From Escherichia virus TH20, in the sequence record MT446394.1: a DNA stretch of 40,001 nucleotides. One strand, 5' to 3'. The notes beneath the pieces were generated by a model. The model was not told the origin of the DNA. It did no database searches and saw only the letters and a program-made list of their open reading frames with translations. Both the position numbers and the translations under genes were made by a program. Shown one piece after another: positions 5,382-26,458 of the stretch (within the stretch, counting starts at the first letter, position 1; each line of letters starts with the position of its first letter).

Positions 5382-7145
5382 CTAGTGGAACGTAACGTAT
5401 GACCCTAGTCCAAGCTCGTCGTCCGTATCGTGAGTTACCCGGACCCCATTGTCCCAGAACTCAGTGTGGATGGACTCGAAGCCTTTCCGTGGGTTCTCCA
5501 TCTGTTCCTCCAGCCACTCCTCAGTGACTTCACGTTCGCCTTTGTTGGCATCCTTAGCCATAGACTCAACGAAGAACTGTACACCGATAGCTAGCGCATC
5601 AAGTCGGTCATCGTGTGCCAAGGCCCCACGTTCACGAGAGATACGTGTCATCTGGTAGAAGAGAGAGTAGATAGGGTTACGAACACCATCCTTATCAGAG
5701 GCCGACTGGTAGTCTTGGACGATAGCAGCAGCGTTAACGATAAGTCGGTGAGACCCCATGATAGGCTCCAGAACGTCACAGATGCGGAGTTCTTTCTGAC
5801 CCTTACTCTTCACTTCAGTTACAGCCGCAGGATGGATACGGGCCGCTACAGGCTTGAATAGCTCAAGGTACATACCATCACCGAAGTTACCCTCAATGAC
5901 GTATTCGTTGACCTTCCACTTACGACCAATCTTAGCCAGCGCTTCAAGCGTAGAGTCTTCATAACCACCCCGCATACCACCAACTTCCATAGCGAAGATG
6001 TAGCCGTTGAGCTGGTACAGTACCGCATAGCCAGTTTCATCCTTACCACGACCACTAGGGTCAATGACCAGAATCTTCTGGGTGTACGAACTGAAGGCAG
6101 AACCTACAGTCTGATACGTGTGGTATGAGTCACCCATGAGTCCAACGTTAGGAACGTCCTCACGCTTGTTCTGAGGGTTTGGCAGCCATTGGTAGACCAT
6201 TGGGCTGGACGCTGGGTCCAAGTCGGCTACGATAAGGTCACGGAGCTTCAGAGGGTACTTCTCAGCATCACTTAGGTTCGGGTTAAGCATGAACTGTAGA
6301 GCGAAGCCGGCTTTACCATAGGACAGCTCACGTTCCTTCAGGTCAGTATCGTCGAATCGAACTTCATCGGTCGGACGCCAGTAGAAGGCCTCAGGGTCCT
6401 CTTCAAGCTCTGCCTGAAGCATAGGAGCCAGACGGTCTCCGTAAGACTGCCAGTCCTTCCTGTCGCGTGGATAACGAGCAGGCCAGATAGTAGTGGTGTA
6501 CCCACGGCCTTCCAACTCACGATACAAGGTCATCTCGTTCTGAGGAGTACCCAGATAGATGATCGTACCTCCCGGCTTCAGGATAGCGTCGAACTCTTTC
6601 ACAAGCTCTGACAGACGGTCTCGTGCGGCCTGAGTCGCTGAGTTGTTTGGAACCTCCACGTCGTCGGCAATCAGGATGTCGGCACGACTACCAGTCAACT
6701 GACCAGTGATACCAACGGACTTAACCGAAGGTGAGTGGTCTGGCTTGGCTGGTCCAACATCGAAGCTGATAACCGCATCTCGCTGCCCCTGCTTAGGTTT
6801 GAGCTCCTGAAGCTGAGGCATGAGGTCGATGATTCGCTTGATGAAGATGGAGTTAGCATCGGCTCGTTCCTTTGAGGCCGACACAATCATGAACTTCAAG
6901 TCTGGGTTGTTCCATAACTTCCAGACCACGAAGGCACACGTAATGAAGGACTTCCCGATACCACGGAACGCTTGTAGGATGAAGCGCCTGTTGCCCCCAG
7001 ACGATAGTTTCTTCGCCATGTCAATCTGACAGCGAGTCGGGACTGGGAGTGACAGAGCTTTCCACAGGACGAACAGGAAGAACACGAAGTCTGCCTTCAT
7101 ACGGGCAGTCATTAGCGCCTGACGCGCCACTAAATCTTTACTCAA
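5382..7145 (-). CDS. Terminase large subunit (T7 gp19-like), 587 aa
   Basis: Co-linear with T7 gp19 ([39 protein letters not shown]); start is TTG at 7145 with AAGGAGG 6 nt upstream, overlapping spanin stop. Confidence 0.97.
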
Positions 7146-7591
7146 TGCGTCACCTCCTTATCTTGCTGCAAGGCTCTCACAGTGTCCTGAAGGGCCTTAA
7201 TCCACTTGTCTCCTTTCACTCCGATGACGATAAGACGTTTAGCATCTCGTTCGTCAAGTTCGGCGTAACCATCAATGACGCATCGACCGTCACTTTGCGT
7301 GGTTCCACTCGTTGGTTTGACTCGGATGCGCAGCCGCTTATTGTCAGACTGAAGGTCAGCAATAATCCTATCAGTGCTGCCTTCCAGCGAGGACATTTCG
7401 TCCTGAAACCGTTTGGACACTTTGTTGACTTCATCTTGGACAGCAAGCCTTGTATCTTCCGATGCCTTAAGATTCGAGGTGTATTCTTCATTGACCTTAG
7501 CCTCCCACTTATTGTTAGCGGTGTGGTAGCCACCAGCAAACATCACTGCTGCAAGTAACCACGGAGCCGCTCTCTTTAAAAATTCGAGCAT
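7142..7591 (-). CDS. i-spanin (T7 gp18.5 / Rz-like), 149 aa
   Basis: N-terminal TM segment [14 protein letters not shown], coiled-coil body; position between small and large terminase; GGGAGGG upstream of ATG 7591. Confidence 0.85.
7216..7491 (-). CDS. o-spanin lipoprotein (T7 gp18.7 / Rz1-like) embedded out of frame in the i-spanin gene
   Basis: [25 protein letters not shown] with lipobox LTISGC aligns to remembered T7 gp18.7; start could be ATG 7491 or 7434. Confidence 0.6.
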   Translation of the reverse strand: MKNTPRILRHRKIQGLLSKMKSTKCPNGFRTKCPRWKAALIGLLLTFSLTISGCASESNQRVEPRKVTVDASLMVTPNLTNEMLNVLSSSE

Positions 7592-7644
7592 AGTTGCCCT
7601 CCCGGTTTATCAGATTTCACGTAGAGTCTCCTCCACTAGTTAGT

Positions 7645-7690
7645 GTTAACCATAAAGGCCACTACATATAGTAATGACCTTGAGTCTAAC
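7645..7690 (-). promoter_or_regulatory. Conserved stem-loop, candidate RNase III processing site (R18.5 position)
   Basis: One of three copies of AATCATAAAGGCCAC...ATGACCTTGAGTCTA; the stem needs a G-U pair on the minus-sense RNA but is a C-A mismatch on the plus strand. Confidence 0.4.
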
Positions 7691-7692
7691 AC

Positions 7693-7956
7693 TTATTGAA
7701 CACCATACCCGGTGTCATTATCTTCCGTAGATGAGAGCACCTTATCGTACTCTGCGTTCAGGGCCTCCATATCAGCCAGAGTCTTCTCGTCGACAGACAC
7801 CTTGCTTAGCACGAAGTTGTGACGAGCCAGTAGCTTCTCAATGGCGTTGTAAAGCTGAGGTGAACGCTTAGTGTCATCCCGCAGGTCTTGCAGCATGAGT
7901 CGAGCACGTTCAGTATCTAGCATCAAGAGGAACTTCTCTAAGTCCATCTGCGTCAT
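7693..7956 (-). CDS. Terminase small subunit (T7 gp18-like), 87 aa
   Basis: Size and position; ATG 7956 overlaps holin stop (ATGA). Confidence 0.8.
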   Translation of the reverse strand: MTQMDLEKFLLMLDTERARLMLQDLRDDTKRSPQLYNAIEKLLARHNFVLSKVSVDEKTLADMEALNAEYDKVLSSTEDNDTGYGVQ

Positions 7957-8147
7957 GTTTTACCCCCTCCTTTAATCGTTTTGTAGACTAGCACACCAAT
8001 CTGGACAACGGTGTACGCGATAGCTGCAACGTAGAACCATTCGTTAAGTGTGAGTCCGAAGAAGAACCGACTGGCACCATCAGCCGCAGCGGTCCCGACT
8101 ATAGGAGAGGCTTTAAGGACCTCATTCTTGAAGTCTAACTCAATCAT
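7953..8147 (-). CDS. Class II holin (T7 gp17.5-like), 64 aa
   Basis: GLTLNEWFYVAAIAYTVVQIG matches T7 gp17.5; GGAGGT upstream. Confidence 0.85.
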   Translation of the reverse strand: MIELDFKNEVLKASPIVGTAAADGASRFFFGLTLNEWFYVAAIAYTVVQIGVLVYKTIKGGGKT

Positions 8148-8255
8148 AAAACCTCCAGTTTAAAGCGGGTCGTCCGTGACCCAAAGTTGTTACCATAAGT
8201 TGGTCAGCGTGTAGTTAGCCTCTACCCCCTTCCACACACGCCGAAGAGGTTTTTT

Positions 8256-10805
8256 TTAAATGGTTGCTATTTGCCACCGTCGATCATAGTAATGGGAGAA
8301 TCCGCTATACGTCAAAGTCATATGAACAATAGCCATTGATATTGATGCTGACGGGCAGCTGACACGGATGAATGTTTGTCCGCCTCTAACTAATTTCTGC
8401 ACATTAAACCCTGACAGGCTTTTATCCCCGGCATCAAGATTACTCCATAAAGCCCCCGATGCTACGTTGGACTCGCTACTACCAGACATACTAAACATCA
8501 AACGCCCTCCAGCCTCTCTACCACCAAGTCCATTTTTGTTTACGGGTATGATTGACATTTCCCCGGCAAGGAAGCACGCACCATACCTTGATTCTTCACC
8601 GACAGTGGTTAGCAGAATGTCTACCGCTCTGTTCCACGGAAGTATGAATGTCGCCTGCTCGGTTTTTACTTCATTAAAATACGCGTCAGCTGTCACATTT
8701 ATTGACGAAAGAGTTACGCCGTCATAGGAGTTACGCCCTTCTAGTGGTGCATGGCCATATACCCTATTTCCTGCTCTGACGCTTCGGATTCTGGTGTCTG
8801 CTAATCTTGAGGCGTCAGCAGCTTTAACGAATCTGAAATTATCTCCTAAAACCAGAGAGTTACCGTAAGCATTAACGTTTCCTGACGTATTTTTGTTTAT
8901 TAAGGCAATATGGTAATCCGCCTTAACATAACCGGAGTCCAGCACAATACTTCCATTCGGCATTCTTGCCTCGCTTGTCGGCATTTCAATGAACCGAGTG
9001 ACACCAGTGTTCATTGAACTTTGAATCCAACATGACAATCCCTTAAGGGTGAACTTAAACTGGTCATCTGTTTCTGCATAATCAGAGAAATCAATACCCA
9101 CAGTGCCGTTTATGCCCTCGATACCCATGCCGTCTATTGTTACGGACCGCAACTGCCCACCTACACGATGTGGTCGTATACAACCATCAGCGGCGATATT
9201 TGACGCAGTTACATACATGACAGGGTATCCACCAGCTACCGGTTCGTACGTACTTCTGTCTATGGAATAACCCCAGAGAAAGCCATCGTCGCAGTGGTGC
9301 GCCCATATAGAATTAATGTTGGTGCTGGTATTTCCACTAAGAGCAATGCCATACTTGCAATCGTACATATAGATGTTTTCTATTGTACTGACGAAAGTAA
9401 GCGCCGGTAGCGCGAATTTATAATGATAGAACTCAACATTACGAATCGTGCACAGTTTACCACCACCACCCGATAATTCGGACCCACTTATCATCAACGG
9501 GCATCCAACATAATCTGCGTCAGCATTTCTGAAAGCAATGTTTTCAACAGAAAGGCTATGGCCCCACGAGGTACTTACGAACCCACCAGTTGTCGATGTG
9601 TATATAATGCTTTTACGGGGAGAGTCACCGATAAGGCTAAGCATTACCCCATCCCATCTATACGCGCTAATGTCAATCTGTGTGCTGCCCATATAGATTG
9701 GCTGTTCGATTAATAAAGGAATATTGTGCGCAATACTTGCGGTATACGCAGCCAGCATCGCGGCCCCGTCGTTATGGGTTCCGGAAAGGTTGGCAGCCCC
9801 CATGCTTGGCGCTTTAGGATATGGAGTACCCTGAATGGTGCTGCCGACGATATATGGAGCATCCATCCATGCGCCAAACATTTTAGGAGTAATTCCCCGA
9901 ACGTTTGATAAGTCCCTTTTCCAGCGCTTACCTCCACTAGTAATTATAACAACGCCATTATCATCATTAGTTGTGGAATCTGCTAAGTCCGCATAGAACC
10001 ACCCACCACCAGAATCACCAGACTCATTTGGTGCAATTGATGTTGTATGTTTTTCTACAAAAATGCGCTGGCCATCAACATCAGGTTCAATAGTTCTTAA
10101 TGTTGATATATCATCGCATTTGCCGATTAACTTAAATCCATCGCTTTTATTTAATTGACTCCTTAATGAAGCATCACCTACACTAACCCACGCACCTACT
10201 CCAATCCCACCGGAAGTTTCAGGAGTTGAACCAGCAGGAACGTTCTTTGGAAGAGTACCATCCCAGCGGTAATAATCACCATCCTCTTCCCATAGCAGGA
10301 CCGTGTTCCATGTTGTAACGTTGAAGCCTTTCTCGAAGGAGCGACTGGTAATATAGCCAATTCGACCAGCTTCCTTGATACTCGCAGCTATTCCTCGTGC
10401 TTCGTCCTCGCTATCCTTAGCGTTGCTAGCAGAGCTACCAGCAGCAGCGGCATATTCCTTCGCTAAGTCAACCGTTTGGTCTCGACCTTCTTCTGCAATA
10501 TGGATAGCCTGAAGCTCTGCATTGGTCAGGTCACTAGCTGTCAACACTGAGCCATTCCTGAAGTCTACCACTAAGTCAGTTCCAGTCTGACGGTGAATAC
10601 GAACGATGTCGAAACCTGATTGGTCAACCAGCATCTCAATCATCGTTGGATTAAGGAATCGGTAATCTCGACCAGCTTCCAGTACACGGTTCAGGGCAGG
10701 GTTAGAGCTATTCACCAGCGTAACAACAACAAACGTTCTGGCTAGGTAGTCGAACTCAATCCTGTACTGAGTGTTTCCTGAAGGGAATTGTGTAATCGTG
10801 GACAT
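8256..10805 (-). CDS. Tailspike: T7 gp17-like N-terminal anchor fused to a depolymerase-like beta-helix body, 849 aa
   Basis: N-terminus FDYLARTFVVVTL...VDFRNGSVLTASDL resembles T7 gp17 1-150; remainder is Gly/Ser/Thr/Asn-rich as in pectate-lyase-fold capsule depolymerases; AAGGAGG upstream. Confidence 0.9.
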   Translation of the reverse strand: MSTITQFPSGNTQYRIEFDYLARTFVVVTLVNSSNPALNRVLEAGRDYRFLNPTMIEMLVDQSGFDIVRIHRQTGTDLVVDFRNGSVLTASDLTNAELQAIHIAEEGRDQTVDLAKEYAAAAGSSASNAKDSEDEARGIAASIKEAGRIGYITSRSFEKGFNVTTWNTVLLWEEDGDYYRWDGTLPKNVPAGSTPETSGGIGVGAWVSVGDASLRSQLNKSDGFKLIGKCDDISTLRTIEPDVDGQRIFVEKHTTSIAPNESGDSGGGWFYADLADSTTNDDNGVVIITSGGKRWKRDLSNVRGITPKMFGAWMDAPYIVGSTIQGTPYPKAPSMGAANLSGTHNDGAAMLAAYTASIAHNIPLLIEQPIYMGSTQIDISAYRWDGVMLSLIGDSPRKSIIYTSTTGGFVSTSWGHSLSVENIAFRNADADYVGCPLMISGSELSGGGGKLCTIRNVEFYHYKFALPALTFVSTIENIYMYDCKYGIALSGNTSTNINSIWAHHCDDGFLWGYSIDRSTYEPVAGGYPVMYVTASNIAADGCIRPHRVGGQLRSVTIDGMGIEGINGTVGIDFSDYAETDDQFKFTLKGLSCWIQSSMNTGVTRFIEMPTSEARMPNGSIVLDSGYVKADYHIALINKNTSGNVNAYGNSLVLGDNFRFVKAADASRLADTRIRSVRAGNRVYGHAPLEGRNSYDGVTLSSINVTADAYFNEVKTEQATFILPWNRAVDILLTTVGEESRYGACFLAGEMSIIPVNKNGLGGREAGGRLMFSMSGSSESNVASGALWSNLDAGDKSLSGFNVQKLVRGGQTFIRVSCPSASISMAIVHMTLTYSGFSHYYDRRWQIATI

Positions 10806-10851
10806 TATGCCTCCTTTGTGATTTAAATGGAGGCCTATGGTAGCGCCTCCC

Positions 10852-10874
10852 GTTTCCTATAGTGATAGTTTAGT
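10852..10874 (-). promoter_or_regulatory. Phage-RNAP promoter upstream of tailspike gene (phi17 position): ACTAAACTATCACTATAGGAAAC
   Basis: 23-mer overlaps gene 16 stop; followed in the leader by hairpin GGAGGC-N10-GCCTCC (10831-10852) and the RBS. Confidence 0.7.
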
Positions 10875-13800
10875 CCTTGATGTGGATGCCTTGCTCCTCA
10901 AACGTTCCAAGCAACAGCTTCTGGGTAATTGGGTCGTTAGGAACCAGTTCACGGAACGTATTATACATCCCGGTCATGTAGTCTCGCTCGTTGACACGAG
11001 TATCAGCCTTGAGGTAGCCAGCCAAGTTGTAAGCCGAAGCACCAACGTTAGCAGCATATCCGAAAGCGGGAACCTGCTCCAAGAAGCTACCAACAACATT
11101 CATCACAGGGTCACTTGTAGCTGCACCATACGCGATGGCACGTTCAGGTTTCTCTGTAGGTGAACGAGGAAGGATAGACGAACGTAGCATCTTAGTGTCC
11201 TCATACCCAGCGATCCCGCCCAGAATGTTGGCGACACCTAGTGGTCCACCGAGATGTGAACTACGTGATAGAGCTGCATATCCAATCATCGTTGGGTCCA
11301 GAGCTTGCTTGAGGTAGTCACGGTCTCGACCATCCTGCATAGCGTAAGCCTTGACATGCACCTGAGCCATGTAGTAGATACCAGCAAGACCCATAGAGAT
11401 CACAGTGGACAGAGCGGCGTCCATCGCTCGGTTGTTCTTCGTGGCGTTATAGAAGGTTCGCATGGTACGTCCATTGATGGACTTGATGACGAAGTTCTTA
11501 AACTGAAGGACAGTCTTAGCGAGAGGACCATAAGCCTTGGCGTCCATGTTTGACAGCTTGTGGGGCCGGAGTAACGTTTCGTCAGCGATGGTGTCACCCA
11601 TACGCCACAGGTCCATAGCCCTTGGGTCCTGACTGAACGCCTTCTTATCCTTGATGGTATACTTCCCGTCTGGACCACGAGTCACTGACTCACGGATTAA
11701 TGACTTAATGCCCTTCCACTGCTCGTCGGAGATACCAGCGGTCTTAAGCCAGCGGTCATCGAACTTACGCTTACTACCAGTCAGGCTATGCTCAACGATG
11801 TCAGACAGGAAGCCTTGACGTCCAGCATCTAACAGGTAGTTGGTCGTACCATTGAGGACTTTAGTGAACGGAGAGCGTACTGCAAGTTCACCAGTGTAAT
11901 ACTTAGCAGTCCCCAGAGCTGTAGCTGTACCACGACCGAGGTCACTGTAAGACCGCAGACGGTCAATGACGTCCTGTTTAGACGGGCGGATTGAGTCATC
12001 AAGTTCCTTACCGAAGAGAACATTGTGAAGGTCCTTAATCTCTGAGGCTCCGACCTTCTTGTTACGGAAGGCTAGGTCACGGAACATCGGGACTCCATGA
12101 AGCATTGCACGAACGTTACCGCGAGCCAGCATACCACCAATCTCCGTTAAGTTCTGAACACCCATGTAGGCATTCTTAGCGAAGAACGATAGGTCTGTCA
12201 TTGTGCGCATCACGGTAGCGAAGGCTGCATCGTCAGCACCATCACGTCGAGCACGACCAGTGAGAATCTTCAAGGTGTCACGTAAGGTCGAGACCTCACC
12301 TTTCAACTTACCGTCATCACCAGCCTTGTTCATCATGGTCTCAACCAAGTCCTTCATTTCCTTCGTGGTCTTGCCTGTACCAGCCATGATAGCAATGTCA
12401 CCATTAACTCGACGGTTGTAGGCCGGGACAATCTTGTCCATGTCCCACTCACGCAGGTTGTTGACACTGAAGGTCTGCCCATTAGGTAGGACGATTGACA
12501 TATCGCTATCGAACAGGTTACGAGCCTCAAGGAAGCTGTTGTTCTCCAGACCAACCAGACCGCTGATGTTCTCTTCCATTACGGATGAACGTTCGAACTG
12601 CTCGGTGTGGGAGATACCGTAAGCCTTATCGTTGGCGTACTTATCTACCGCAGCAGCAAGTCCCTCTGGAGTCAACGTAGGGTCAGCCTCTAAGAGTGCC
12701 TCGTCCACGCGTTTCTTGACTTCAGGTCTGGACGCATAGCTGGTCAACCATGACTTCTTGATGGCCTCCTGCAACGCCTCTTGACTCCCAAGCTCCTTGA
12801 TGTACAGCTCCTTCATCTGTTTGCTATACACGTGAGGGACGTAGGTTCCCTTGAAGCGGCTACCCGGAAAGATAGACTGAGCGTCTGGCCGACCAAACAT
12901 AGCTGGGTTCTCCATCATCTCACGCTTGGCGTCAAACTGGTTCTTCAGTAGGTCATAGACTTTCAGTTCTCCCGGAGTCAGTTCAGCCTTCAGGTTTCCG
13001 CTACCATCTTCGATAGCCATAGACACGCGCTGGTAGATGTCCTGACGGAATGCTCCAGAGTCTCGCCAGAATGCTGTCTGGAAGTACGGGTCCTTTAGTG
13101 CCTCAGTAACCGCATCGTCGATGTCGTTGTAGAACCGATGGTCCACAGCACGAAGTCTCTCGAACACGTCTGACGATGTTGTCCCGATTTTACCTGAGGC
13201 CCCAGACTGCATACCAGTAGGTGAACGCACTAAGTCAGCAGCTACTCCACGAATCTCAGGGTTCTCAGACCGAAGCAGCTTCAGGCCAATCTCGGTAAGT
13301 CCACCAAGGTTCACACCAGCAGCGGCACGTTCCGGCTCAATCACTTCGTCAAAGACTTGACGTGTCTTAGGGTTCAGAGGGTTCTCACCAATCAGGATTG
13401 AACCGTCTTCTAATCGTACACTTCCCGGCTCATTCGGAACGTCAGCGAACTTAACGCCTTGATGACTAAAGGTCTGCTCACCTTCCTGAATAGGGAGACG
13501 AGACAGGTCCTGACCAACAACGTTACGAGCGGTCTCACGAGCTTCCAGACGTGTAGCTGGACCAGCAAACTCGTTGGTTGACTTGCCTAGGGCCTTGCCG
13601 ATAGCGTCCCCGATAGCTGTCATTCCCCCACCGAAGAGAGCACCGCCCATAATTGCCTCAGCCACGTGAGCGTCCCCACCAGCAACTGAGGTTCGAGCAA
13701 TCTCGGATGCCCCAGCCAGAGCACCAGACTGAGCAGCCACAGTGAACATCTTGTTGACTAGCTTCCCACCTTTACCTACCTGCCAAGCAATAGGAACGTA

Positions 13801-14757
13801 GGTCAGAGGGTCCACGCCAGCACCAATCACACCAGCCGCCAGTTGAGCGCCAGTCCCAGCCTTGGCCTTCTCTTGGTCCAACTTCTGGTTCTCAAGCGCC
13901 AAGTTAATAAGCTCGGTCAGGTTCTGAGGAGAACCACCAGTAATGACTCCGTAATACTGAGGCATAACCCCAGCGTTACGAATCTGGTCCAGCTCTTCAC
14001 GAGTCCACTTATGGTTGTTCCATCTGGTCGGGTTGAACACATCGCCAATGACATCCAGTGAATCCTCAGTCTGGCCAGCCCGGATAGCCACGCCTACCAT
14101 AGAGTTCTTCACTTCAGCTTCTGTCGCCGCACCGAAACCGAACCACGTAGAGCGGTCCTCACGCTCCTGCATGGTCTCTCCAGTAGCCTTATAGAACATC
14201 TCACCGAACGATTCGTTGGGAGCTTCAGGTGCTTGACCCTCAATGTTCAGACCAGCAGCGGTCGGAAGGTTCTCACCCAGAGCTACTTTAGGTTTAGCCT
14301 TGAGTCCTTCCGTGAGTGCGTCAAATACGTTAGCGCTTACTGGTGGAGTCTTTGGGCTAATGCCGTTGAGTGCCCGTGCGACTCCCTTCTGATAGACTTC
14401 AGGGTCGTACCGTGAGCCTGTCTCATGGAAGCTGATAGCTTGTGCCAGAGAAGACAGGGTGTCAGGGTCCGATAGGTCGAGACTCTGTGTAGCTGGAATA
14501 CCAGTTGCAGCCACCACTGAGTCAATATAAGCCTTAGTGTCGTTCTCGTTAGGAGGTGCCCATCTGTTGATAATCTTCTCGATGGAATCATAACCTTGGC
14601 GACCGTAGGACAGCAGGTTTTTACCTAAAGCTCGGACGCCAGACTCTGGACTATCGAAGGTGACGAATGCGCCATCATCTCCAGTCATTCCTTCCCATTG
14701 GTCCTTACTTACCCGGATGTTACCCGGATTGTTATTGCGAATACCACGAGTCGCCAT
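10870..14757 (-). CDS. Internal virion (core) protein with N-terminal lytic transglycosylase domain (T7 gp16-like), 1295 aa
   Basis: Size, position, N-terminal NNPGNIR...HETG-type transglycosylase region; ATG 14757 with AAGGAG upstream. Confidence 0.95.
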   Translation of the reverse strand: MATRGIRNNNPGNIRVSKDQWEGMTGDDGAFVTFDSPESGVRALGKNLLSYGRQGYDSIEKIINRWAPPNENDTKAYIDSVVAATGIPATQSLDLSDPDTLSSLAQAISFHETGSRYDPEVYQKGVARALNGISPKTPPVSANVFDALTEGLKAKPKVALGENLPTAAGLNIEGQAPEAPNESFGEMFYKATGETMQEREDRSTWFGFGAATEAEVKNSMVGVAIRAGQTEDSLDVIGDVFNPTRWNNHKWTREELDQIRNAGVMPQYYGVITGGSPQNLTELINLALENQKLDQEKAKAGTGAQLAAGVIGAGVDPLTYVPIAWQVGKGGKLVNKMFTVAAQSGALAGASEIARTSVAGGDAHVAEAIMGGALFGGGMTAIGDAIGKALGKSTNEFAGPATRLEARETARNVVGQDLSRLPIQEGEQTFSHQGVKFADVPNEPGSVRLEDGSILIGENPLNPKTRQVFDEVIEPERAAAGVNLGGLTEIGLKLLRSENPEIRGVAADLVRSPTGMQSGASGKIGTTSSDVFERLRAVDHRFYNDIDDAVTEALKDPYFQTAFWRDSGAFRQDIYQRVSMAIEDGSGNLKAELTPGELKVYDLLKNQFDAKREMMENPAMFGRPDAQSIFPGSRFKGTYVPHVYSKQMKELYIKELGSQEALQEAIKKSWLTSYASRPEVKKRVDEALLEADPTLTPEGLAAAVDKYANDKAYGISHTEQFERSSVMEENISGLVGLENNSFLEARNLFDSDMSIVLPNGQTFSVNNLREWDMDKIVPAYNRRVNGDIAIMAGTGKTTKEMKDLVETMMNKAGDDGKLKGEVSTLRDTLKILTGRARRDGADDAAFATVMRTMTDLSFFAKNAYMGVQNLTEIGGMLARGNVRAMLHGVPMFRDLAFRNKKVGASEIKDLHNVLFGKELDDSIRPSKQDVIDRLRSYSDLGRGTATALGTAKYYTGELAVRSPFTKVLNGTTNYLLDAGRQGFLSDIVEHSLTGSKRKFDDRWLKTAGISDEQWKGIKSLIRESVTRGPDGKYTIKDKKAFSQDPRAMDLWRMGDTIADETLLRPHKLSNMDAKAYGPLAKTVLQFKNFVIKSINGRTMRTFYNATKNNRAMDAALSTVISMGLAGIYYMAQVHVKAYAMQDGRDRDYLKQALDPTMIGYAALSRSSHLGGPLGVANILGGIAGYEDTKMLRSSILPRSPTEKPERAIAYGAATSDPVMNVVGSFLEQVPAFGYAANVGASAYNLAGYLKADTRVNERDYMTGMYNTFRELVPNDPITQKLLLGTFEEQGIHIKD

Positions 14758-14761
14758 TATG

Positions 14762-17044
14762 TTACTCCTTACCGATTAGTACGTTTGCGATACCCTCCAA
14801 TGAGACGTCATTGTACATCCCTCCGCGCTTCTCGATGTTGGCCTCTCGGTCAGCTCGACGTTTGTCACCAGCAGCTTTAGTCCCGACTATACGCGCTCGC
14901 TTGTTAGCGTCAAGTTCTGCCTGAGCGTATGCGGCATCTTGTGCCTTCTGCTGTTGTTCGCGGTAGAGTTTACCTACAAGTTCTTTATCGTAGCGAATAC
15001 GAATAGTCCCTGTAGCGTCTTGGAGGAAGATAGAGCCATTCTGTTCAACAACGGACAACTGAGAGTTCACTACCCAAGGGTTGGCCTTAATGAGCTGCTT
15101 ACGAGCGGTGTCGATAATGTCTCGACCAACCTGCCACGACTCTGGGTTATCCCCGACCATAAGCTGGTGCTTGGACACCATGCCGATGGACTTACCGTCC
15201 GAACCTTCAGATTGGAACGTTACGGTGTTCTCATTCAGCCAGCGTTGAGTCTGCTGAGTTGCAGCGTCAGCGTTACCTGTACGATAGTACCATGAGTCCC
15301 ATACCTTACGAGCACTTGCGTCCAGAGACGTTGGTAGACGAGACAACTTGGTGTTCTTGGAGTCGTTCTTCAGCTCCTGCCACGCCTTGTCTGACTCCAT
15401 GCGCATCTCACGGCTTTGACTTGCAGCTTGCTTATCAGCTTCAATCATCGTCTGAGGGTCCAGACCCATCTTGTCCATCTGGTCAAACGTAGAGAACAAC
15501 TGAGCTTGGTCAGGATACAGAGCAGCGAAACTTGAAGGGTCCTGAGTGTAGGCACGACGAAGAGATTCGAAGCGTTTCATCTTGTCTGGGTCGTACTGCC
15601 CACGGATGACAGCAGCTTGCCACTCACCAGCGGCGTCCTGAGTCAGCGTCTGGAAGGCATTACGGAACGGACCGTTGTTAGTGTCAGCTCTTAACAATGC
15701 CACCTTCTGAGCGTCCTTAGCAGCCTCAGGGATGTCCATCTGGTCAATCTGCTGTAGCTTAGCAGACGCATAGTTGTTCATGTCTGAACGCTTGAACTCT
15801 CCTGTAGCTTCAGATACCGGAAGGTCCTCATAGTTGGTGGACACGTTGTCACCAGCCAGACGTCGCTGATAAACTTGGTCAATGACCAGTTGCTTGTTCT
15901 GGGTCTGGATTAACTTCGTGTTCTCCTTTGCCTGTTCAGCAGACTTACGCTTTACCGCTTCCAGTAGTGTGACTTCGGCGTTAATAAGCATCTGGCGCTG
16001 AGGAGTGAGTTCTTCACCGGGTTGAAGCTGGTTGTTCTGCTCCTTGAGTTTTTGAATCTGGGCCAGACCGATGGTTGGGTCATCCTGAAGAATCGCAGAC
16101 TGAACGCCTAACGCCAAGTCTTCCTGATACTTAGCCACCAGTTTATACTCAGTACCTTGGGCCTCAACCATAGCAGCATTGAAGACGTCAGGTCCTACAA
16201 TCTCTTCGATGGTAGCGTCAACACCATTAAGGGTGATACGCTCGCCACGGACTTGCTGTAGGAAGTTTGAGCCTCCTGACTTCTGGATTGCGTCACGTAC
16301 CGTCTGGGCGATGACCTCTCGTGCTCGCTGGTCCGAAGGGATAGCAGCAGTTGTTAGACCATCCCGCAGGTAGGCCATGAAGGTCTTTCCAGACTCAGGA
16401 GAACGCATCAGGTCCCCATCGTTAAGGAACGAGTTCATCTCAATACGAGTGTTCAACATTGCTGTCTCTTCAGACTGCTTACTGAAATACTTATTGAAGG
16501 ACCCGTAGATAGCGATGTTTCTGTCCGTGATGTTATCGTTGAATCCACGCTGGAAGAACTCGTCGGTAGGGTTAATACCCGCCTCTTCAGCATAGGACTT
16601 AGCGGCATCCTGAAGTCGCTGGTGGCGATACTCTTCCATGTCCTGACGTGTACGGAACTCACCGTTCTGAATCTTAACGTTAATCTCGTCGTCTACAGCA
16701 AAGGCGGCATTACGACCAGTCTTGACTCGAAGTGCTTCCATAGCGTAAGGGTCGTCCTGATACAGCAATGTGCCGTTCTGGATAGCCTCACGTCTCTGCT
16801 GAGGTGTCAGTTTGCGGATAATCTCGTTAGACCGCTCGTCAGCTCTTGTCTTCTCATCGTCTTTGAACTGCTTGTACAATCCGGTCCCAGACTCAACGAA
16901 GTTGGTTAACGCACGAGCCAGCCCGGAGTCCCCAGTAGGAGCCTGAACGTTGGCTGCTTGATAGTTGACGGCGATAGTTTTACCCGGCGCTCTGCCGCGA
17001 CCCATAGTCCGATTAGCCAGAGCTGATTCAATATTACTAGCCAT
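14762..17044 (-). CDS. Internal virion (core) protein (T7 gp15-like), 760 aa
   Basis: Size and position between gp14 and gp16; GAGGAGG upstream. Confidence 0.9.
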   Translation of the reverse strand: MASNIESALANRTMGRGRAPGKTIAVNYQAANVQAPTGDSGLARALTNFVESGTGLYKQFKDDEKTRADERSNEIIRKLTPQQRREAIQNGTLLYQDDPYAMEALRVKTGRNAAFAVDDEINVKIQNGEFRTRQDMEEYRHQRLQDAAKSYAEEAGINPTDEFFQRGFNDNITDRNIAIYGSFNKYFSKQSEETAMLNTRIEMNSFLNDGDLMRSPESGKTFMAYLRDGLTTAAIPSDQRAREVIAQTVRDAIQKSGGSNFLQQVRGERITLNGVDATIEEIVGPDVFNAAMVEAQGTEYKLVAKYQEDLALGVQSAILQDDPTIGLAQIQKLKEQNNQLQPGEELTPQRQMLINAEVTLLEAVKRKSAEQAKENTKLIQTQNKQLVIDQVYQRRLAGDNVSTNYEDLPVSEATGEFKRSDMNNYASAKLQQIDQMDIPEAAKDAQKVALLRADTNNGPFRNAFQTLTQDAAGEWQAAVIRGQYDPDKMKRFESLRRAYTQDPSSFAALYPDQAQLFSTFDQMDKMGLDPQTMIEADKQAASQSREMRMESDKAWQELKNDSKNTKLSRLPTSLDASARKVWDSWYYRTGNADAATQQTQRWLNENTVTFQSEGSDGKSIGMVSKHQLMVGDNPESWQVGRDIIDTARKQLIKANPWVVNSQLSVVEQNGSIFLQDATGTIRIRYDKELVGKLYREQQQKAQDAAYAQAELDANKRARIVGTKAAGDKRRADREANIEKRGGMYNDVSLEGIANVLIGKE

Positions 17045-17055
17045 TAGTCCTCCTC

Positions 17056-17643
17056 TTAGCTATGACCTGTAGGTGTGCCTTTAGCAGCACTAATTGGTGC
17101 AGCACCACCAGAGCTGGACGCTCCAGCGATTGACTTACCAGCGGCGTAGCCTTGCATCCCGGCGTTAGCAACATTAAGTGCATGAGCCAGTGGGCTGGTC
17201 TTGATGATTTTACCTTGACCACGGATAGCAGACTTGGTGTTCTCAATGTTGGCGATACGGTTCCCAAATATAGCCGCATAGTCACGGTTGTAGCTTTCGG
17301 TAATCCCTGCTCGCTCCTTGACCGTATCTCCTTCGACCTGACGTTCAATCCTGTCCATAGAGTTACCTTCCAGACCGGACTCAGCCACCGCAGCTCTGAC
17401 CATACCCTGATTGCGGATACCGTTTAGCGTGGTCTCTGTCAGTTCAGCCATCTGCTGCTCCTTCAGGTCTCGCTCCTGCATCTTCAGGTTGGCGTCAGAG
17501 TAGTTCATCTGCTTAATCATCTCCTGAGACTGACGGTTCTGAGCATCAATTGCTGCACCTTCGGCCTTGGCCTGCTGGGATGCGGACATAGTGGCCCCGG
17601 CTACAGCCATGATCCCTAGACCGATGGATACTGGTTCACACAT
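17056..17643 (-). CDS. Internal virion protein (T7 gp14-like), 195 aa
   Basis: GNSMDRIERQVEGD...YNRDYAAIFG resembles remembered T7 gp14; GGAGGT upstream. Confidence 0.85.
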   Translation of the reverse strand: MCEPVSIGLGIMAVAGATMSASQQAKAEGAAIDAQNRQSQEMIKQMNYSDANLKMQERDLKEQQMAELTETTLNGIRNQGMVRAAVAESGLEGNSMDRIERQVEGDTVKERAGITESYNRDYAAIFGNRIANIENTKSAIRGQGKIIKTSPLAHALNVANAGMQGYAAGKSIAGASSSGGAAPISAAKGTPTGHS

Positions 17644-18037
17644 GGTTCACCTCCAGATAGTTGATAGCGTTTCTAAGCAACTGGACGTCATCCTTCAGCT
17701 TGCCTATAGCTTGATTGCAGTTGGTACATAGCAGCCCTCTAACCTTTCCAGTTGAATGGCAATGGTCTACCGCTAGTCTTCCTACAGACTCTGTACCATG
17801 ACAAATAGCACATGTTCCACCTTGCTCACGAAGCATTTTATCATACTCCTCAGGTGTTATTCCGTATCCTTTCTTCAGGTTATACCTCCTGTTGTGCTCT
17901 GGGGTTCTATCCTTCCGTATCTTGGACCAACAGCTTCTGCAATGAGGCTTGCGCCTGTTCGGGTCTTTCTTGGTGGCCTGTTTGTGAAACTCAGTGATTG
18001 GTTTCTCCAGACCACAAGTTAAACAAACCTTGGTCAT
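17636..18037 (-). CDS. HNH endonuclease (endonuclease VII-like), free-standing, between genes 13 and 14
   Basis: CAICH...LAVDHCHSTGKVRGLLCTNCNQAIG; likely start ATG 18037 (AAGGAG upstream); track start 18100 is GTG inside gene 13. Confidence 0.8.
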   Translation of the reverse strand: MTKVCLTCGLEKPITEFHKQATKKDPNRRKPHCRSCWSKIRKDRTPEHNRRYNLKKGYGITPEEYDKMLREQGGTCAICHGTESVGRLAVDHCHSTGKVRGLLCTNCNQAIGKLKDDVQLLRNAINYLEVNHV

Positions 18038-18039
18038 CT

Positions 18040-18495
18040 TTACTCCTTGGTGATTGTGAATAGAATGAATACTTCTCCAGTCACTGGACTTCTGGTCCAC
18101 TTATCGTCGTGGAACTTAGCGCCTATTGACTTGAGAAACCGGATGTGGGACGCATTGCCTTCCCAGACGTAGTTCCATAGTACCGGATAGTCCTCCAGCA
18201 TCTTGTCACGATACTCCATGATTCTCTCACGGAACTCTCGCTTACCTTTAGGTGGGAGACGCTCGGTCATTCTGGTTGTCAGGAACCAAACGTTGTCACC
18301 TTGGTTGCCGCCATAGGCGTAAATATCCCCAGTAGCGTTAGTTAAAACCACAGATGAAGACGTTAGGTGTGCTTGCAGCCTTTCAGTGAGACCCTCAGTG
18401 GTCCCGTAGTTGGCTTTACACTCCTCTAAGTCGTCATCTGTAAGTTGTGCAGCAGCGTGCCAAACGTCTACATCTGTAGCCTTGCGAATATACAT
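18040..18495 (-). CDS. Virion assembly / internal protein at the gene 13 position, 151 aa
   Basis: Assigned by position downstream of the phi13-type promoter; no motif recognised. Confidence 0.5.
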   Translation of the reverse strand: MYIRKATDVDVWHAAAQLTDDDLEECKANYGTTEGLTERLQAHLTSSSVVLTNATGDIYAYGGNQGDNVWFLTTRMTERLPPKGKREFRERIMEYRDKMLEDYPVLWNYVWEGNASHIRFLKSIGAKFHDDKWTRSPVTGEVFILFTITKE

Positions 18496-18514
18496 AAAGT
18501 CTCCTTATAACCTT

Positions 18515-18564
18515 AAGGGCCTATAGTCCCTATAGTGATAGTTAAGGTAAATCTATAGGCCCTT
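18515..18564 (-). promoter_or_regulatory. Perfect 12-bp inverted repeat (AAGGGCCTATAG / CTATAGGCCCTT) enclosing the phi13 promoter; candidate RNase III site
   Basis: Arms at 18515-18526 and 18553-18564, 26-nt loop; sits between tail tube B stop and gene 13. Confidence 0.45.
18525..18547 (-). promoter_or_regulatory. Phage-RNAP promoter (phi13 position): CCTTAACTATCACTATAGGGACT
   Basis: Near-consensus 23-mer, +1 G at 18530. Confidence 0.7.
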
Positions 18565-18571
18565 CAATAAG

Positions 18572-20929
18572 TTAGACGGAACGAGCTTTCTTAGCGTATG
18601 ACGCCTCCCAGCCACACCCAACGATGGACACTGGGGTAGGATAGTCTGACTCTAAGGTTAGACTCGTGGTTAATGCGTTACCATTCATAGCGAAGCGATA
18701 CTGACCGTCCCCAATGTTGGTAGTCCCGATGGTTTGCTGACCAAGGGTGTACCCATTAAAGGTGTTAACGAACTCCCGCTCACCGTTTCTGACAATGAGT
18801 CTAAGAGCGCCAGTGTCCTTGTAGTTGACCCAAGCCCGACGAAGTTGTAGGCGTCCAGTGTCTTCAGACTGAGTGCCCCTCTCGTCTTCAATCTTAATCA
18901 GGAACCGTGAGAACTTGTAGGACATCAGATAAGACCGTCCGATGAACACTGTACGTCCTGACCAATCGCCATTGAGCACAGCCACAGTTGAGATGTCGGT
19001 CAATTCACCAAGGTCCACGTAGGCACCCTGACTGTCAATCAGATAGTACCGACCGGGAGACGGAGCGTTTCCACCATAAGCAGAACCAATGTCAACCGTA
19101 GTCTTATAGGTGTCAGCGTTGTATGAGCCAATTGGTATTACCATAGACACCTTGGAGTCAACGTGGAGTCTATATGGCTCTAACGGAAAGTCAGTTGCCT
19201 CCTTGATGAACTTAAGGTGCTCAAGGTCCACTCCTCCTTGGTGCTGACGAACAATGAACATGGTAGAGCCAATCGACGCAGACGCCAGAATCTTATCAGC
19301 TTTAGGGAACTCCCAGTGCGACCAAGAGGCTTGAAGCTGTACGCCGTCCTTAAACAAGAACTTGTAGATGTAGATTCTGTTGTATGCACCTGTAGAGTTG
19401 ACGCAGATGTAGTTCTCAGTCCCTGTCCCCTGAATGTCAAACACCCCGTTAGGGATATAGGACAGTACGTGTCCAGTGGTATCATCGGCATCCTTCACGT
19501 CAGACACATCTGCTACAGCGAAGTATCTCTTAATGCTGGTGAATGACCCACGAGGCGCTGAGAAGAAGACTGAGCGTCCTACAGCGAACGGTCTGGCATT
19601 ATCACCTAAGGCAAACTCTGAGCCTACATCAAGCTGGATAGACTTCGAGGTAAGGACCCCTGAGCTTGTCATCACGAACTGCACCTCATCTGACCAAAGT
19701 AGTAGCTGCTCGCTAAACGGAACGGCATACTTAAGGATTGAGATTCTAGGGTGACTTACAGCTACGTCAATAGGATCATCATCACTCAGTGTAGCCACAC
19801 TCTTAGGGAAGAACGCAAAGTAGCTGGCTGAACGGCTCATGATTACGTTCTCACCTGACAAGAACCCTAGCCTGTTCCTGTAGAAGAACACATCGTTAAT
19901 CGTAGCATCCACGAAGCTAGGCATAGGGTTTATGTCATCATTACCAGCGCCACGCTTGGACCAGTCCAGAGTCTTGAACTCAAAGGATCCATCAGACTTT
20001 CTTACCAGAGCATGCGGCATTGTGGTGACATCGAACCCAGTTACCACTCCCGGCTCTACTGTCTCCTTCCACGTCTTAGTGTTGGAGTCATACATCACGT
20101 AATATTCATCGGCGCTACTGTTGGTCTCACCTTGAATCTTAATGATGTACCCATTTGGAGCCGCAAGGGGCAACTTAGAGATTGTTTGCACCGTGTCGAG
20201 GACTGGGCTGATTAGTTGGTTAGCGTAGCCATCCTCAGTCTCCACTGAGTTAATGTCAGTCCCTGAAGGGGCAGTGATTAACAGGAATCCAGACCCAAGG
20301 TCGAACGTGAAGGTAGGATAGGCAGCAACAAGAAGGTCTCTCAGAGCTGCACCGATAGCCTGAGCATCAACCTTAGGAGGGTCATTCTCGGCATCATTAC
20401 CTGCTGGTAGCTTATGCGAGACCTTAACGCCACCGTTGATTCCCACCTTAAGGGTGCGACCATACTGTCCACCGCGCAGGTTAATTAAAGCGCGTGCTTT
20501 ACGATTATAACCAGAGTGTGACTTCTCGCTTCCACCTTTAACGACAACCTTACGGTTAACGACGAATGTATAGTCTGCCACAGTAACGACACGGATGTCA
20601 TCTCGCGGGTTGGACGACTTAACGTAGTCTACCGCACCGGAAACTGAGTATTGATTACCGCTCAAGTCAACTACCTGAATGTTGGTCCCGTTGAACACGA
20701 TGTAATACTGCTCCTGCTCATCACGGTTAATCAGGTGGAACTTGGGGTTACTCCCAACGTCGATGTTAAGACGTCGCTTGAAGACTGTAGGTGGGCGCTT
20801 CTGGAGGCCATCACTCTCGGATGACCAGCAGTTAACTTGAGCCTCGCCTTGGTCTGAGAACCTCAGGATGTCAGGCTGTTGGCTAATGCCACCCTTAAGA
20901 TTTTTTATGCTTTGCGTAATAAGCGGCAT
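18572..20929 (-). CDS. Tail tubular protein B (T7 gp12-like), 785 aa
   Basis: Size and position; AAGGAGA upstream of ATG 20929. Confidence 0.95.
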   Translation of the reverse strand: MPLITQSIKNLKGGISQQPDILRFSDQGEAQVNCWSSESDGLQKRPPTVFKRRLNIDVGSNPKFHLINRDEQEQYYIVFNGTNIQVVDLSGNQYSVSGAVDYVKSSNPRDDIRVVTVADYTFVVNRKVVVKGGSEKSHSGYNRKARALINLRGGQYGRTLKVGINGGVKVSHKLPAGNDAENDPPKVDAQAIGAALRDLLVAAYPTFTFDLGSGFLLITAPSGTDINSVETEDGYANQLISPVLDTVQTISKLPLAAPNGYIIKIQGETNSSADEYYVMYDSNTKTWKETVEPGVVTGFDVTTMPHALVRKSDGSFEFKTLDWSKRGAGNDDINPMPSFVDATINDVFFYRNRLGFLSGENVIMSRSASYFAFFPKSVATLSDDDPIDVAVSHPRISILKYAVPFSEQLLLWSDEVQFVMTSSGVLTSKSIQLDVGSEFALGDNARPFAVGRSVFFSAPRGSFTSIKRYFAVADVSDVKDADDTTGHVLSYIPNGVFDIQGTGTENYICVNSTGAYNRIYIYKFLFKDGVQLQASWSHWEFPKADKILASASIGSTMFIVRQHQGGVDLEHLKFIKEATDFPLEPYRLHVDSKVSMVIPIGSYNADTYKTTVDIGSAYGGNAPSPGRYYLIDSQGAYVDLGELTDISTVAVLNGDWSGRTVFIGRSYLMSYKFSRFLIKIEDERGTQSEDTGRLQLRRAWVNYKDTGALRLIVRNGEREFVNTFNGYTLGQQTIGTTNIGDGQYRFAMNGNALTTSLTLESDYPTPVSIVGCGWEASYAKKARSV

Positions 20930-20938
20930 ATGCTCTCC

Positions 20939-25812: not shown

Positions 25813-26061
25813 TTAAATAGAAATACCGCCACCAGAGGTGCGAGAGACCTGAAGGCTCCGCTTACCGGAACGCTTCACTTTCTTCTCGTCAGATGCGGTT
25901 GCTTCAGTATCCACATCCTCCACTTTGTCGTTCGGTACTTCCACTGGTGCTGCTGGGGTCTGAGCCTCAACAACCTTAGGAGCATCGTCAGAGCCAAGAC
26001 CCACTGTCCCTAACGTACTTTTCACCACTTTCTTGAAAGCCTTACTGATTGATTTACCCAC
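25813..26061 (-). CDS. Tail assembly / host-range protein (T7 gp7.3-like), 82 aa
   Basis: MGKS...SRTSGGGISI matches T7 gp7.3 ends; GTG start with AAGGAGA 6 nt upstream. Confidence 0.75.
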   Translation of the reverse strand: MGKSISKAFKKVVKSTLGTVGLGSDDAPKVVEAQTPAAPVEVPNDKVEDVDTEATASDEKKVKRSGKRSLQVSRTSGGGISI

Positions 26062-26458
26062 GGTTAATCTCCTTAGTTGTTACGATGTCTACCGACCCTG
26101 AAACATGCTTGACACGGGAATACCAGCCAAGGCCCCAACGCTTGCACTCTTCGCCTATGATGTGCCTGACAGTCTCAAGAACCTTGCGGGAGGACTGCGA
26201 GTCACGACGAATAGCGACGATTGAAAGGTCCAGACCGGGAGTCGGTCGGTGCCAAGATGCGGTAGCCAGCATGTAGAGGTACGCTACTGGTTGACCTGAG
26301 ACATCGTAGATTGTGTACTCTTCACCGTCGAACTCGTCAGCCATACGGTAAGTATGAGCCTTGAAGTCCTCGAATGACTTGAAGTTAGACTGCCCGTCTT
26401 CCCAGAGGCGACAAGCGCACATATGGCGACCTTCGCGTGAGTTGAGATATGGTAGCAT
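26054..26458 (-). CDS. Hypothetical protein at the gene 7 position, 134 aa
   Basis: ATG 26458; assigned by position only. Confidence 0.45.
   Translation of the reverse strand: MLPYLNSREGRHMCACRLWEDGQSNFKSFEDFKAHTYRMADEFDGEEYTIYDVSGQPVAYLYMLATASWHRPTPGLDLSIVAIRRDSQSSRKVLETVRHIIGEECKRWGLGWYSRVKHVSGSVDIVTTKEINRG

Follow-up and report, generated by a model that had tools for sequence, protein, structure and literature searches.

The tailspike gene of Escherichia virus TH20 (sequence record MT446394.1) occupies positions 8256..10805 on the minus strand of the 40,001-nucleotide stretch analyzed here, which we call the window. It runs from an ATG start through 849 codons to a stop codon in the list of open reading frames (ORFs), exactly where a preliminary description of the window had placed it. 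Its product is, with near certainty, a β-helix tailspike and the sole receptor-binding protein (RBP) of the phage. We think it likely that the glycan this spike recognizes is an O-antigen, and there is a somewhat better than even chance that the serogroup concerned is O83 or O32; for the complete reading, a glycan-degrading tailspike directed at an O-antigen of serogroup O83 or O32, the balance tips only slightly in favor. By DNA comparison, the gene itself is a mosaic of three parts: a Kayfunavirus anchor, a neck of the type found in phage TH16, and a helix and C terminus of Kagunavirus type.

That the phage has no other RBP is supported at the level of the whole genome. Nucleotides 1–807 of the window are identical to nucleotides 39195–40001, so the window wraps one complete genome of 39,194 bp, opened within the gene for the T7-like RNA polymerase, and neither its ORF set nor scans against PHROGs revealed a second fiber or spike gene in it. 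The preliminary description had reached the same conclusion and had named the protein the likely host-specificity determinant; both points stand, the latter because the protein is the sole RBP, has a β-helix fold, and belongs to a genus in which host specificity is set by the spikes, by way of surface glycans (PMC10408124, PMC11990801).

The earlier suggestion of a depolymerase-like body was to be checked by fold prediction and a fold search, and these yield a right-handed parallel β-helix of the depolymerase type rather than a nonenzymatic fiber, a fold that we regard as established at the level of predicted models. The models are AlphaFold2 monomers only, one of the full-length chain, with a mean predicted local distance difference test score (pLDDT) of 69.5, and one of the body only, with a mean of 81.4. 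The full-length model was poor at its N terminus, because the alignment contained too few T7-type sequences, and gave low template modeling scores; the body-only model mended both. At the top of a Foldseek search against the PDB stood only phage tailspikes and depolymerases (tailspike proteins (TSPs) 4 and 2 of phage CBA120, AM24, K2-2 TSP, Depo32, and DpK2; E 1e-17 to 1e-12), and a fold search of BFVD gave the same picture, with no close neighbor added. The distribution of fold scores is flat, however, and spans lyases, hydrolases, and epimerases as well as the nonenzymatic adhesin PfbA, so that the fold does not fix the chemistry. The structural neighbors include the uronate-acting epimerases and lyases AlgE4, RbmB, and K5 lyase.

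In β-helix glycosidases and lyases, such as the tailspikes of P22, Sf6, HK620, and CBA120, the catalytic residues lie in the central rungs. The middle rungs of the TH20 helix carry an acidic cluster (Asp-482, Asp-540, Glu-563, and Asp-572, accompanied by Tyr-485 and Tyr-531) in which Asp-540, Glu-563, and Asp-572 are invariant in all 22 family members compared and Asp-482 in 21 of the 22; all four acidic residues are also retained in P0042, the sole distant relative, at 24% identity. In the body-only model, Asp-540 and Glu-563 each fall two residues before the end of consecutive long strands (529–542 and 555–565), and they probably stack on adjacent rungs, like the catalytic carboxylates of characterized tailspikes. 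We infer from this conservation that the cluster is the likely active site and that the spike most likely cleaves its glycan enzymatically.

Our assignment of the target to an O-antigen, and to O83 or O32, comes from the convergence of the host of the closest relative, the serogroups of strains that carry related prophages, the genes that adjoin the prophage spikes, and the lack of a capsule locus in one carrier. Kayfunaviruses and Kagunaviruses carry enzymatic spikes and depend, by way of them, on either O-antigen or capsule (PMC11990801, PMC10408124). The phage with the closest helix, NRG857C_P3 (95% identical in the helix and 92% in the C-terminal domain), was isolated on a strain listed as “NRG807C,” of sequence type ST135, serotype O83:H1, and phylogroup B2 (supplementary tables of 10.1101/2023.11.22.567924). 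The genome of Escherichia coli O83:H1 NRG 857C contains wzx and wzy of the “O83 family.”

Prophage copies of the body point in the same direction. Of 5,426 complete E. coli genomes, only those of strains 573, 22KM0354, and mip270_04 have DNA matches to the prophage copy, a further search with the prophage allele of P0029 found the same three complete genomes only, and a distant DNA search with the TH20 helix found only a 145-nucleotide match, in two genomes. The spikes of all three carriers are family members across the neck, helix, and C terminus, at 40–59% identity. Strains 573 and mip270_04 have O32 O-antigen clusters, and 22KM0354 has an O83 cluster. Of these 5,426 genomes, 9 contain O32 wzy and 35 contain O83 wzy, a combined share of 0.8%, such that three carriers of three would belong to these serogroups by chance with a probability of ∼5e-7, or ∼6e-5 if only two of them are counted as independent. 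The two clusters are, moreover, collinear (wzx, wzy, a GT2 glycosyltransferase (GT) gene, a GT gene, a hypothetical gene, a WecB/WfeD-type GT gene, and a last GT gene), and six of their seven products are homologous, at 31–56% amino acid identity, only the last glycosyltransferases being unrelated; the O32 and O83 O-units are therefore probably similar. In the O32 genome CE0032f, a wzy with 99.8% identity is annotated as “O83 family,” so automated naming mixes up the two serogroups.

The surroundings of the prophage spikes are also telling. A gene for an AT3 acyltransferase (PF01757) directly follows every one of them, in one case fused to SGNH, and in three of the four prophage loci an integrase gene follows as well. 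P22-like and Sf6-like phages that modify the O-antigen and convert the serotype pair a spike with an acyltransferase in this way, Sf6 oac being an example. Finally, the colanic-acid locus of strain 573 is ordinary and its pheV site lacks kps genes, yghD ending there 150 bp from the tRNA-Phe gene; the strain thus offers no group 1, 2, or 3 capsule receptor at the usual sites. Together, these observations narrow the choice between a capsule and an O-antigen type that the preliminary description had left, retaining the O-antigen, probably O83 or O32. Within this pair, O83 is the more likely substrate.

Several points weigh against so specific a reading. The serogroup inference draws on the hosts of four relatives and on two serogroups. 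The helix sequences show no grouping by serogroup, identity to TH20 in this region being 47% for the O83 prophage and 40–49% for the O32 ones, so that O83-only, O32-only, and dual specificity are inseparable. Other members of the family, at 55–60% identity, belong to phages deposited with Klebsiella, Serratia, Enterobacter, or the avian pathogenic E. coli (APEC) strain IMT5155 as hosts, the last an O2:K1 strain; across its full membership, the body family may recognize further glycans, and those phages may carry further spikes. In the table of the Picard collection, four of the O83 strains listed (LF82, LF73, NRG807C, and IAI55) share a final-column value of “5,” which may be a capsule type, making a capsule possible for the B2 hosts. 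In addition, sequence and profile searches found no relative in the PDB beyond residue ∼313, and literature searches yielded no experimental work on any member of the body family, none of which has a solved structure.

These points bear on three other explanations, each of which we have weighed against an O83/O32 O-antigen depolymerase. The unassigned relatives from other hosts would suit an enzyme for another O-antigen, neither O83 nor O32, in a family of several specificities, the target having been shifted by the 5% difference in the helix or by the TH16-type neck; TH16, the neck donor, has a helix only 61% identical and a host of unknown serotype, and many RBP subtypes in the survey of Pas et al. 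have inconsistent serogroups (PMC10408124). Nevertheless, the helix and C-terminal domain are nearly those of a phage isolated on an O83:H1 strain, and receptor-binding domains (RBDs) with more than 30% identity usually share a serogroup in the same survey (PMC10408124), which leaves a different O-antigen unlikely. Less probable still is a capsule (K-antigen) depolymerase, for which the link to O83 would arise from B2 O83 clones sharing one group 2 capsule, as the common Picard value could suggest. The K1 capsule is indeed the target of K1F and K1G/K1H, the type phages of the two genera (PMC10408124, PMC11990801), and many capsule depolymerases are found among the structural neighbors (Depo32, DpK2, K5 lyase, and Acinetobacter TSPs). 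But one prophage copy resides in the O32 strain 573, which has neither kps at pheV nor a group 1 capsule locus, and the restriction of all carriers to two serogroups with homologous O-antigen clusters is hard to explain by a capsule. An acyltransferase next to the spike, as found in each prophage, is typical of phages that convert the O-antigen serotype, and the characterized tailspikes of P22-like phages are O-antigen enzymes.

It is similarly improbable that the spike binds its glycan without cleaving it or modifies it in some other manner, for instance with an esterase or deacetylase activity such as that of G7C gp63.1. Scans of Pfam and NCBIfam found no SGNH or esterase domain in the protein, whereas the acidic cluster lies in the central rungs and is kept even at 24% identity; furthermore, a short-tailed podovirus must cross the O-antigen layer, and characterized tailspikes do so enzymatically. 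A bolder version of the depolymerase reading can also be formulated, in which the body represents an uncharacterized, narrow depolymerase family, specific for O83/O32, that moves among at least six phage lineages and acts perhaps as an O-antigen lyase. A lyase rather than the usual hydrolase is conceivable because the uronate-acting AlgE4, RbmB, and K5 lyase are among the top neighbors, and the O83 structure of Jann et al. (1994, a work cited in PMC7685785) is reported to contain 4-substituted glucuronic acid. We consider this complete proposal doubtful.

The mosaic structure of the gene was deduced from three junctions (Table 1). At the first, identity to ZG49, a typical Kayfunavirus, runs at 96% from upstream of the gene to nucleotide 650 of the gene and is then lost, with dense mismatches from nucleotide 654, and similarity to Kagunaviruses begins at nucleotide 664, there being none before; at the protein level, the alignment of a P22-like prophage protein to the TH20 spike starts at residue 213. 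The second is defined by an exchange of nearest relatives. DNA identity to TH16, itself a Kayfunavirus, is ∼98% up to nucleotide ∼1110 and 53–69% beyond, whereas identity to the Kagunavirus siphophages EC3-1 and NRG857CP3 is 61–89% up to nucleotide 1100 and 90–97% over the helix. Protein identities mirror this change: the neck is 97% identical to that of TH16 and 81–83% identical to those of EC3-1 and NRG857CP3, while the corresponding values are 61% and 95% for the helix (residues 378–660) and 70% and 92% for the C-terminal segment. At the third, similarity to Kagunaviruses stops at nucleotide 2552, and identity to ZG49 is again 97% from nucleotide 2594. The GC content of the cassette is 44–46.5%, versus 50.1% for the genome. 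At least two recombination events produced this arrangement, one placing a body-family cassette behind the Kayfunavirus anchor at residue ∼218 and a second, at residue ∼375, bringing in the Kagunavirus-type helix and C terminus. Pas et al. (2023) described anchors that track phage taxonomy and RBDs that track host serotype (PMC10408124); the breakpoint at residue ∼375, inside an RBD family, is a small observation beyond that pattern.

Table 1. Features of the TH20 tailspike gene and of the O-antigen loci compared with it (coordinates refer to the window unless a locus is named)
Feature	Residues or gene nucleotides	Coordinates	Strand	Basis or remark
T7 gp17-like N-terminal tail anchor	residues 1–150	10356..10805	-	Matches to PF03906, 7boz, and 9vvr_A
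Tail_spike_N domain (CBA120 TSP1/Gp66-type)	residues 151–212	10170..10355	-	PF18668; belongs to the genus-conserved anchor
Junction 1	nucleotides ~650–664, residue ~218	10142..10156	-	Generic Kayfunavirus identity ends; exchangeable cassette begins
Neck/intermediate domain	residues 213–345	9771..10169	-	Matches small domains of known spikes
Junction 2	nucleotides ~1112–1141, residues ~371–380	9665..9694	-	TH16-like to Kagunavirus-like, within the first helix rungs
Right-handed parallel β-helix	residues ~346–660 (~315 residues)	8826..9770	-	AlphaFold models; stacked short strands
Candidate active-site stretch	Asp-482, Asp-540, Glu-563, Asp-572 (plus Tyr-485, Tyr-531)	9090..9362	-	Family conservation
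Linker	residues ~661–707	8685..8825	-	pLDDT <50 in both models
C-terminal β-sandwich	residues ~708–849	8259..8684	-	All-β, pLDDT 75–93
Junction 3, cassette 3′ end		8212..8254	-	Kayfunavirus identity back 44 nucleotides past the stop codon
O32 cluster, E. coli 573		14244-20938 of locus		
O83 cluster, E. coli NRG 857C		6003-12331 of locus		

The domain architecture agrees with this division. The preliminary description had an anchor of about 150 residues resembling T7 gp17 followed by a β-helix body of about 700; the anchor is borne out, and the helix is present but much shorter than supposed, the remainder of the chain comprising three further domains and a linker. The anchor matches PF03906 (Phage_T7_tail) over residues 10–113 (E 5.7e-15; 55.8 bits against a gathering cut-off of 25.2), its residues 6–114 match the N-terminal part of T7 gp17 in PDB 7boz, and residues 1–226 are ∼95% identical to PDB 9vvr_A, an 843-residue “Tail spike protein.” The anchor DNA is ∼96% identical to that of many Kayfunaviruses. 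The next domain matches PF18668 over residues 155–211 (E 6.2e-19; 68.3 bits against a cut-off of 25), with PDB matches to TSP1, TSP3, and TSP4 of CBA120 over residues 146–230 and pLDDT values of 65–84. By sequence, the neck matches the small domain of CBA120 TSP2 (5w6p, 12–101) and that of the Klebsiella spikes Depo32 and DpK2 (182–281).

The β-helix is presumed to be the glycan-binding and catalytic domain, and the linker behind it may become ordered only in the trimer. A homotrimeric assembly is suggested by analogy, because homologous N-terminal domains were solved as trimers. The C-terminal sandwich has no match in Pfam, NCBIfam, or the sequences of the PDB, and several of its residues, including Trp-787, Lys-804, Arg-814, His-828, Arg-843, and Trp-844, are kept across the family; trimerization and glycan binding are candidate roles. 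Residues 213–702 correspond to phrog_33504, a family of unknown function in PHROGs, and NCBIfam gave no meaningful match for the tailspike. The label PF27114 (“Phage_tail_beta”) is precomputed on the body of homologues with 94–95% identity (P0001 and P0003), although the name does not point to any function.

The body belongs to a narrow family. A word-indexed search found 36 proteins with it, and the family is judged narrow because an exhaustive phmmer search of 1.84 billion representative proteins returned only 14 clusters at 50% identity, along with one distant relative. Within this small set, the body is joined to at least three types of adaptor, namely PF03906 (T7-type), PF09008 (the P22 head-binding domain), and the Kagunavirus N terminus. 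Its carriers include Kayfunaviruses, Kagunaviruses, and P22-like prophages of E. coli, the T1-like 48-kb phages Opt-719, Sadiya, Phleasolo, and KpnD_Opt-79, the ∼154-kb phages YX22 and fGh-Ecl02, and one metagenomic phage contig of ∼105 kb. We also observed, on the metagenome scaffold ERZ28574976 (10001–12220), a phage contig of ∼102 kb, a body copy with 81% identity fused to a P22-type head-binding domain. It adjoins interrupted anaerobic ribonucleotide reductase genes (three NRDD fragments and an HNH gene) and genes for RNA ligase, PhoH, and Clp protease, the setting of a virulent large phage for a domain usual in P22-like podoviruses.

The closest published parallel is the set of O-antigen tailspikes of Kayfunaviruses and Kagunaviruses analyzed by Pas et al., which have the same combination of a genus-conserved anchor and a horizontally exchanged β-helix RBD; in that work, such RBDs were found to be exchanged among Kayfuna-, Kaguna-, and Lederbergviruses (PMC10408124). 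The TH20 family lies outside the 15 subtypes that were assigned to serogroups there (O2, O8, O16, O18, O22, O26, O45, O77, O78, O103, O104, O111, O145, and O157), and TH16 and the T1-like carriers are missing from the tables of that study, to which the TH20 gene adds a breakpoint within the RBD. In the terms of Pas et al., a subtype is serogroup-specific when no fewer than 90% of the hosts have one serogroup in common, given two RBPs or more (PMC10408124). Here the hosts of known type do not share one serogroup but divide equally between O83 (NRG857c and 22KM0354) and O32 (573 and mip270_04). Members whose host serotype is known are 40–95% identical to TH20 across the neck, helix, and C terminus; others go down to ∼31% in the C-terminal segment. 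Our literature searches found no published tailspike subtype assigned to O83, and nothing relevant on PDB 9vvr, PDB 9lna, related phages, or an O83 tailspike.

Other well-known spikes resemble that of TH20 in part only. TSP2 and TSP4 of the Kuttervirus CBA120 (6w4q, 5w6p, and 5w6h) share only 12–15% identity with TH20 over the helix, where no match is seen at the sequence level, and they act on O157 and O78 and attach in a manner of their own, through a branched TSP complex. The tailspikes of P22, Sf6, and HK620, which are Lederbergvirus endoglycosidases, have no sequence similarity in the helix, and where they have a head-binding domain TH20 has a T7-type anchor. The endosialidase of K1F, the type species of Kayfunavirus, occupies the same genomic position as the TH20 spike, and over its first 653 nucleotides the TH20 gene is ∼96% identical to those of the Kayfunaviruses vB_EcoP_F and PR_Kaz2018, whose spikes are annotated as endosialidases. 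The K1F spike consists of a β-propeller sialidase with a C-terminal intramolecular chaperone. A K1F-like endosialidase was rejected for TH20, which has no Pfam matches to the sialidase or the chaperone and has a β-helix fold instead.

The genomic setting is that of a T7-like podovirus. The spike gene takes the position of gene 17, with the gene for a gp16-like internal virion protein (10870..14757) on one side and the holin gene (7953..8147) on the other, an order shared by other Kayfunaviruses; 108 nucleotides separate it from the holin gene, and a terminator scan found no intrinsic terminator directly 3′ of it. Over 24 kb that include replication and structural genes, the window is 93–95% identical to Kayfunaviruses such as EcoDS1 and PDP351P4. 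All of the large ORFs are encoded on the minus strand and together make up the canonical T7-like set, in which the PHROG scans identified the tail tube proteins gp11 and gp12, the internal virion proteins gp13, gp14, and gp15, the small terminase subunit, and an Ocr-like protein. On the same strand, a 390-residue open frame enters at the window end and a 788-residue open frame runs off the window start.

A second RBP, or a spike split into adapter and RBD, as in CLB_P1 or the paired spike genes of ZG49, was considered and rejected, the TH20 spike being one continuous ORF of 849 codons separated from the holin gene by the short gap noted above. ZG49 (NC_047777.1, 4001–7241) has two adjacent coding sequences annotated as “tail spike protein,” of 686 and 386 residues, where the window has a single gene; therefore, spike organization varies within Kayfunavirus. 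The ORF at 26054–26458 (minus strand, 134 residues) matches phrog_2746 (E 8e-48), the “host range and adsorption protein” of T7 gp7.3 type; its product is not a receptor-binding spike, yet is a second virion component annotated as affecting adsorption. Elsewhere in the virion gene block, a 154-residue ORF at 17636–18100 (minus strand) encodes an endonuclease VII/HNH-like protein (phrog_2633, E 2.7e-45); it lies between, and overlaps, the gp13-like (18040..18495) and gp14-like (17056..17643) genes and is probably a homing-endonuclease insertion.

Taken with the favored reading of an O83/O32 O-antigen depolymerase, these features suggest how the spike might work. Residues 1–212, comprising the gp17-like anchor and the Tail_spike_N domain, would fix the protein to the tail, and residues 213–849 would constitute the exchangeable cassette of neck, β-helix, linker, and C-terminal β-sandwich. 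The cassette is predicted to bind the O-antigen of the host, E. coli O83 or the related O32, and most likely to cleave it. Cleavage would let the virion descend to the outer membrane, and the T7-type ejection machinery would take over from there.

In general, modular tailspikes with swapped RBDs are well described, and the biology proposed here is in that sense unsurprising. What is new is a testable assignment of an uncharacterized RBD family to O83/O32, together with a three-part recombination map of a gene that encodes one of its members. The serotype concerned, O83:H1, is that of LF82 and NRG857c, adherent-invasive E. coli associated with Crohn's disease, and if the spike is indeed an O83-specific enzyme, it would offer an off-the-shelf reagent or phage part against them. 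Because the module is already found on podovirus, siphovirus, and prophage adaptors, it looks promising for the retargeting of phages or tailocins and as a reagent for serotyping or of the decapsulation type. A structure and an analysis of the reaction products would extend the known β-helix depolymerases by a new branch.

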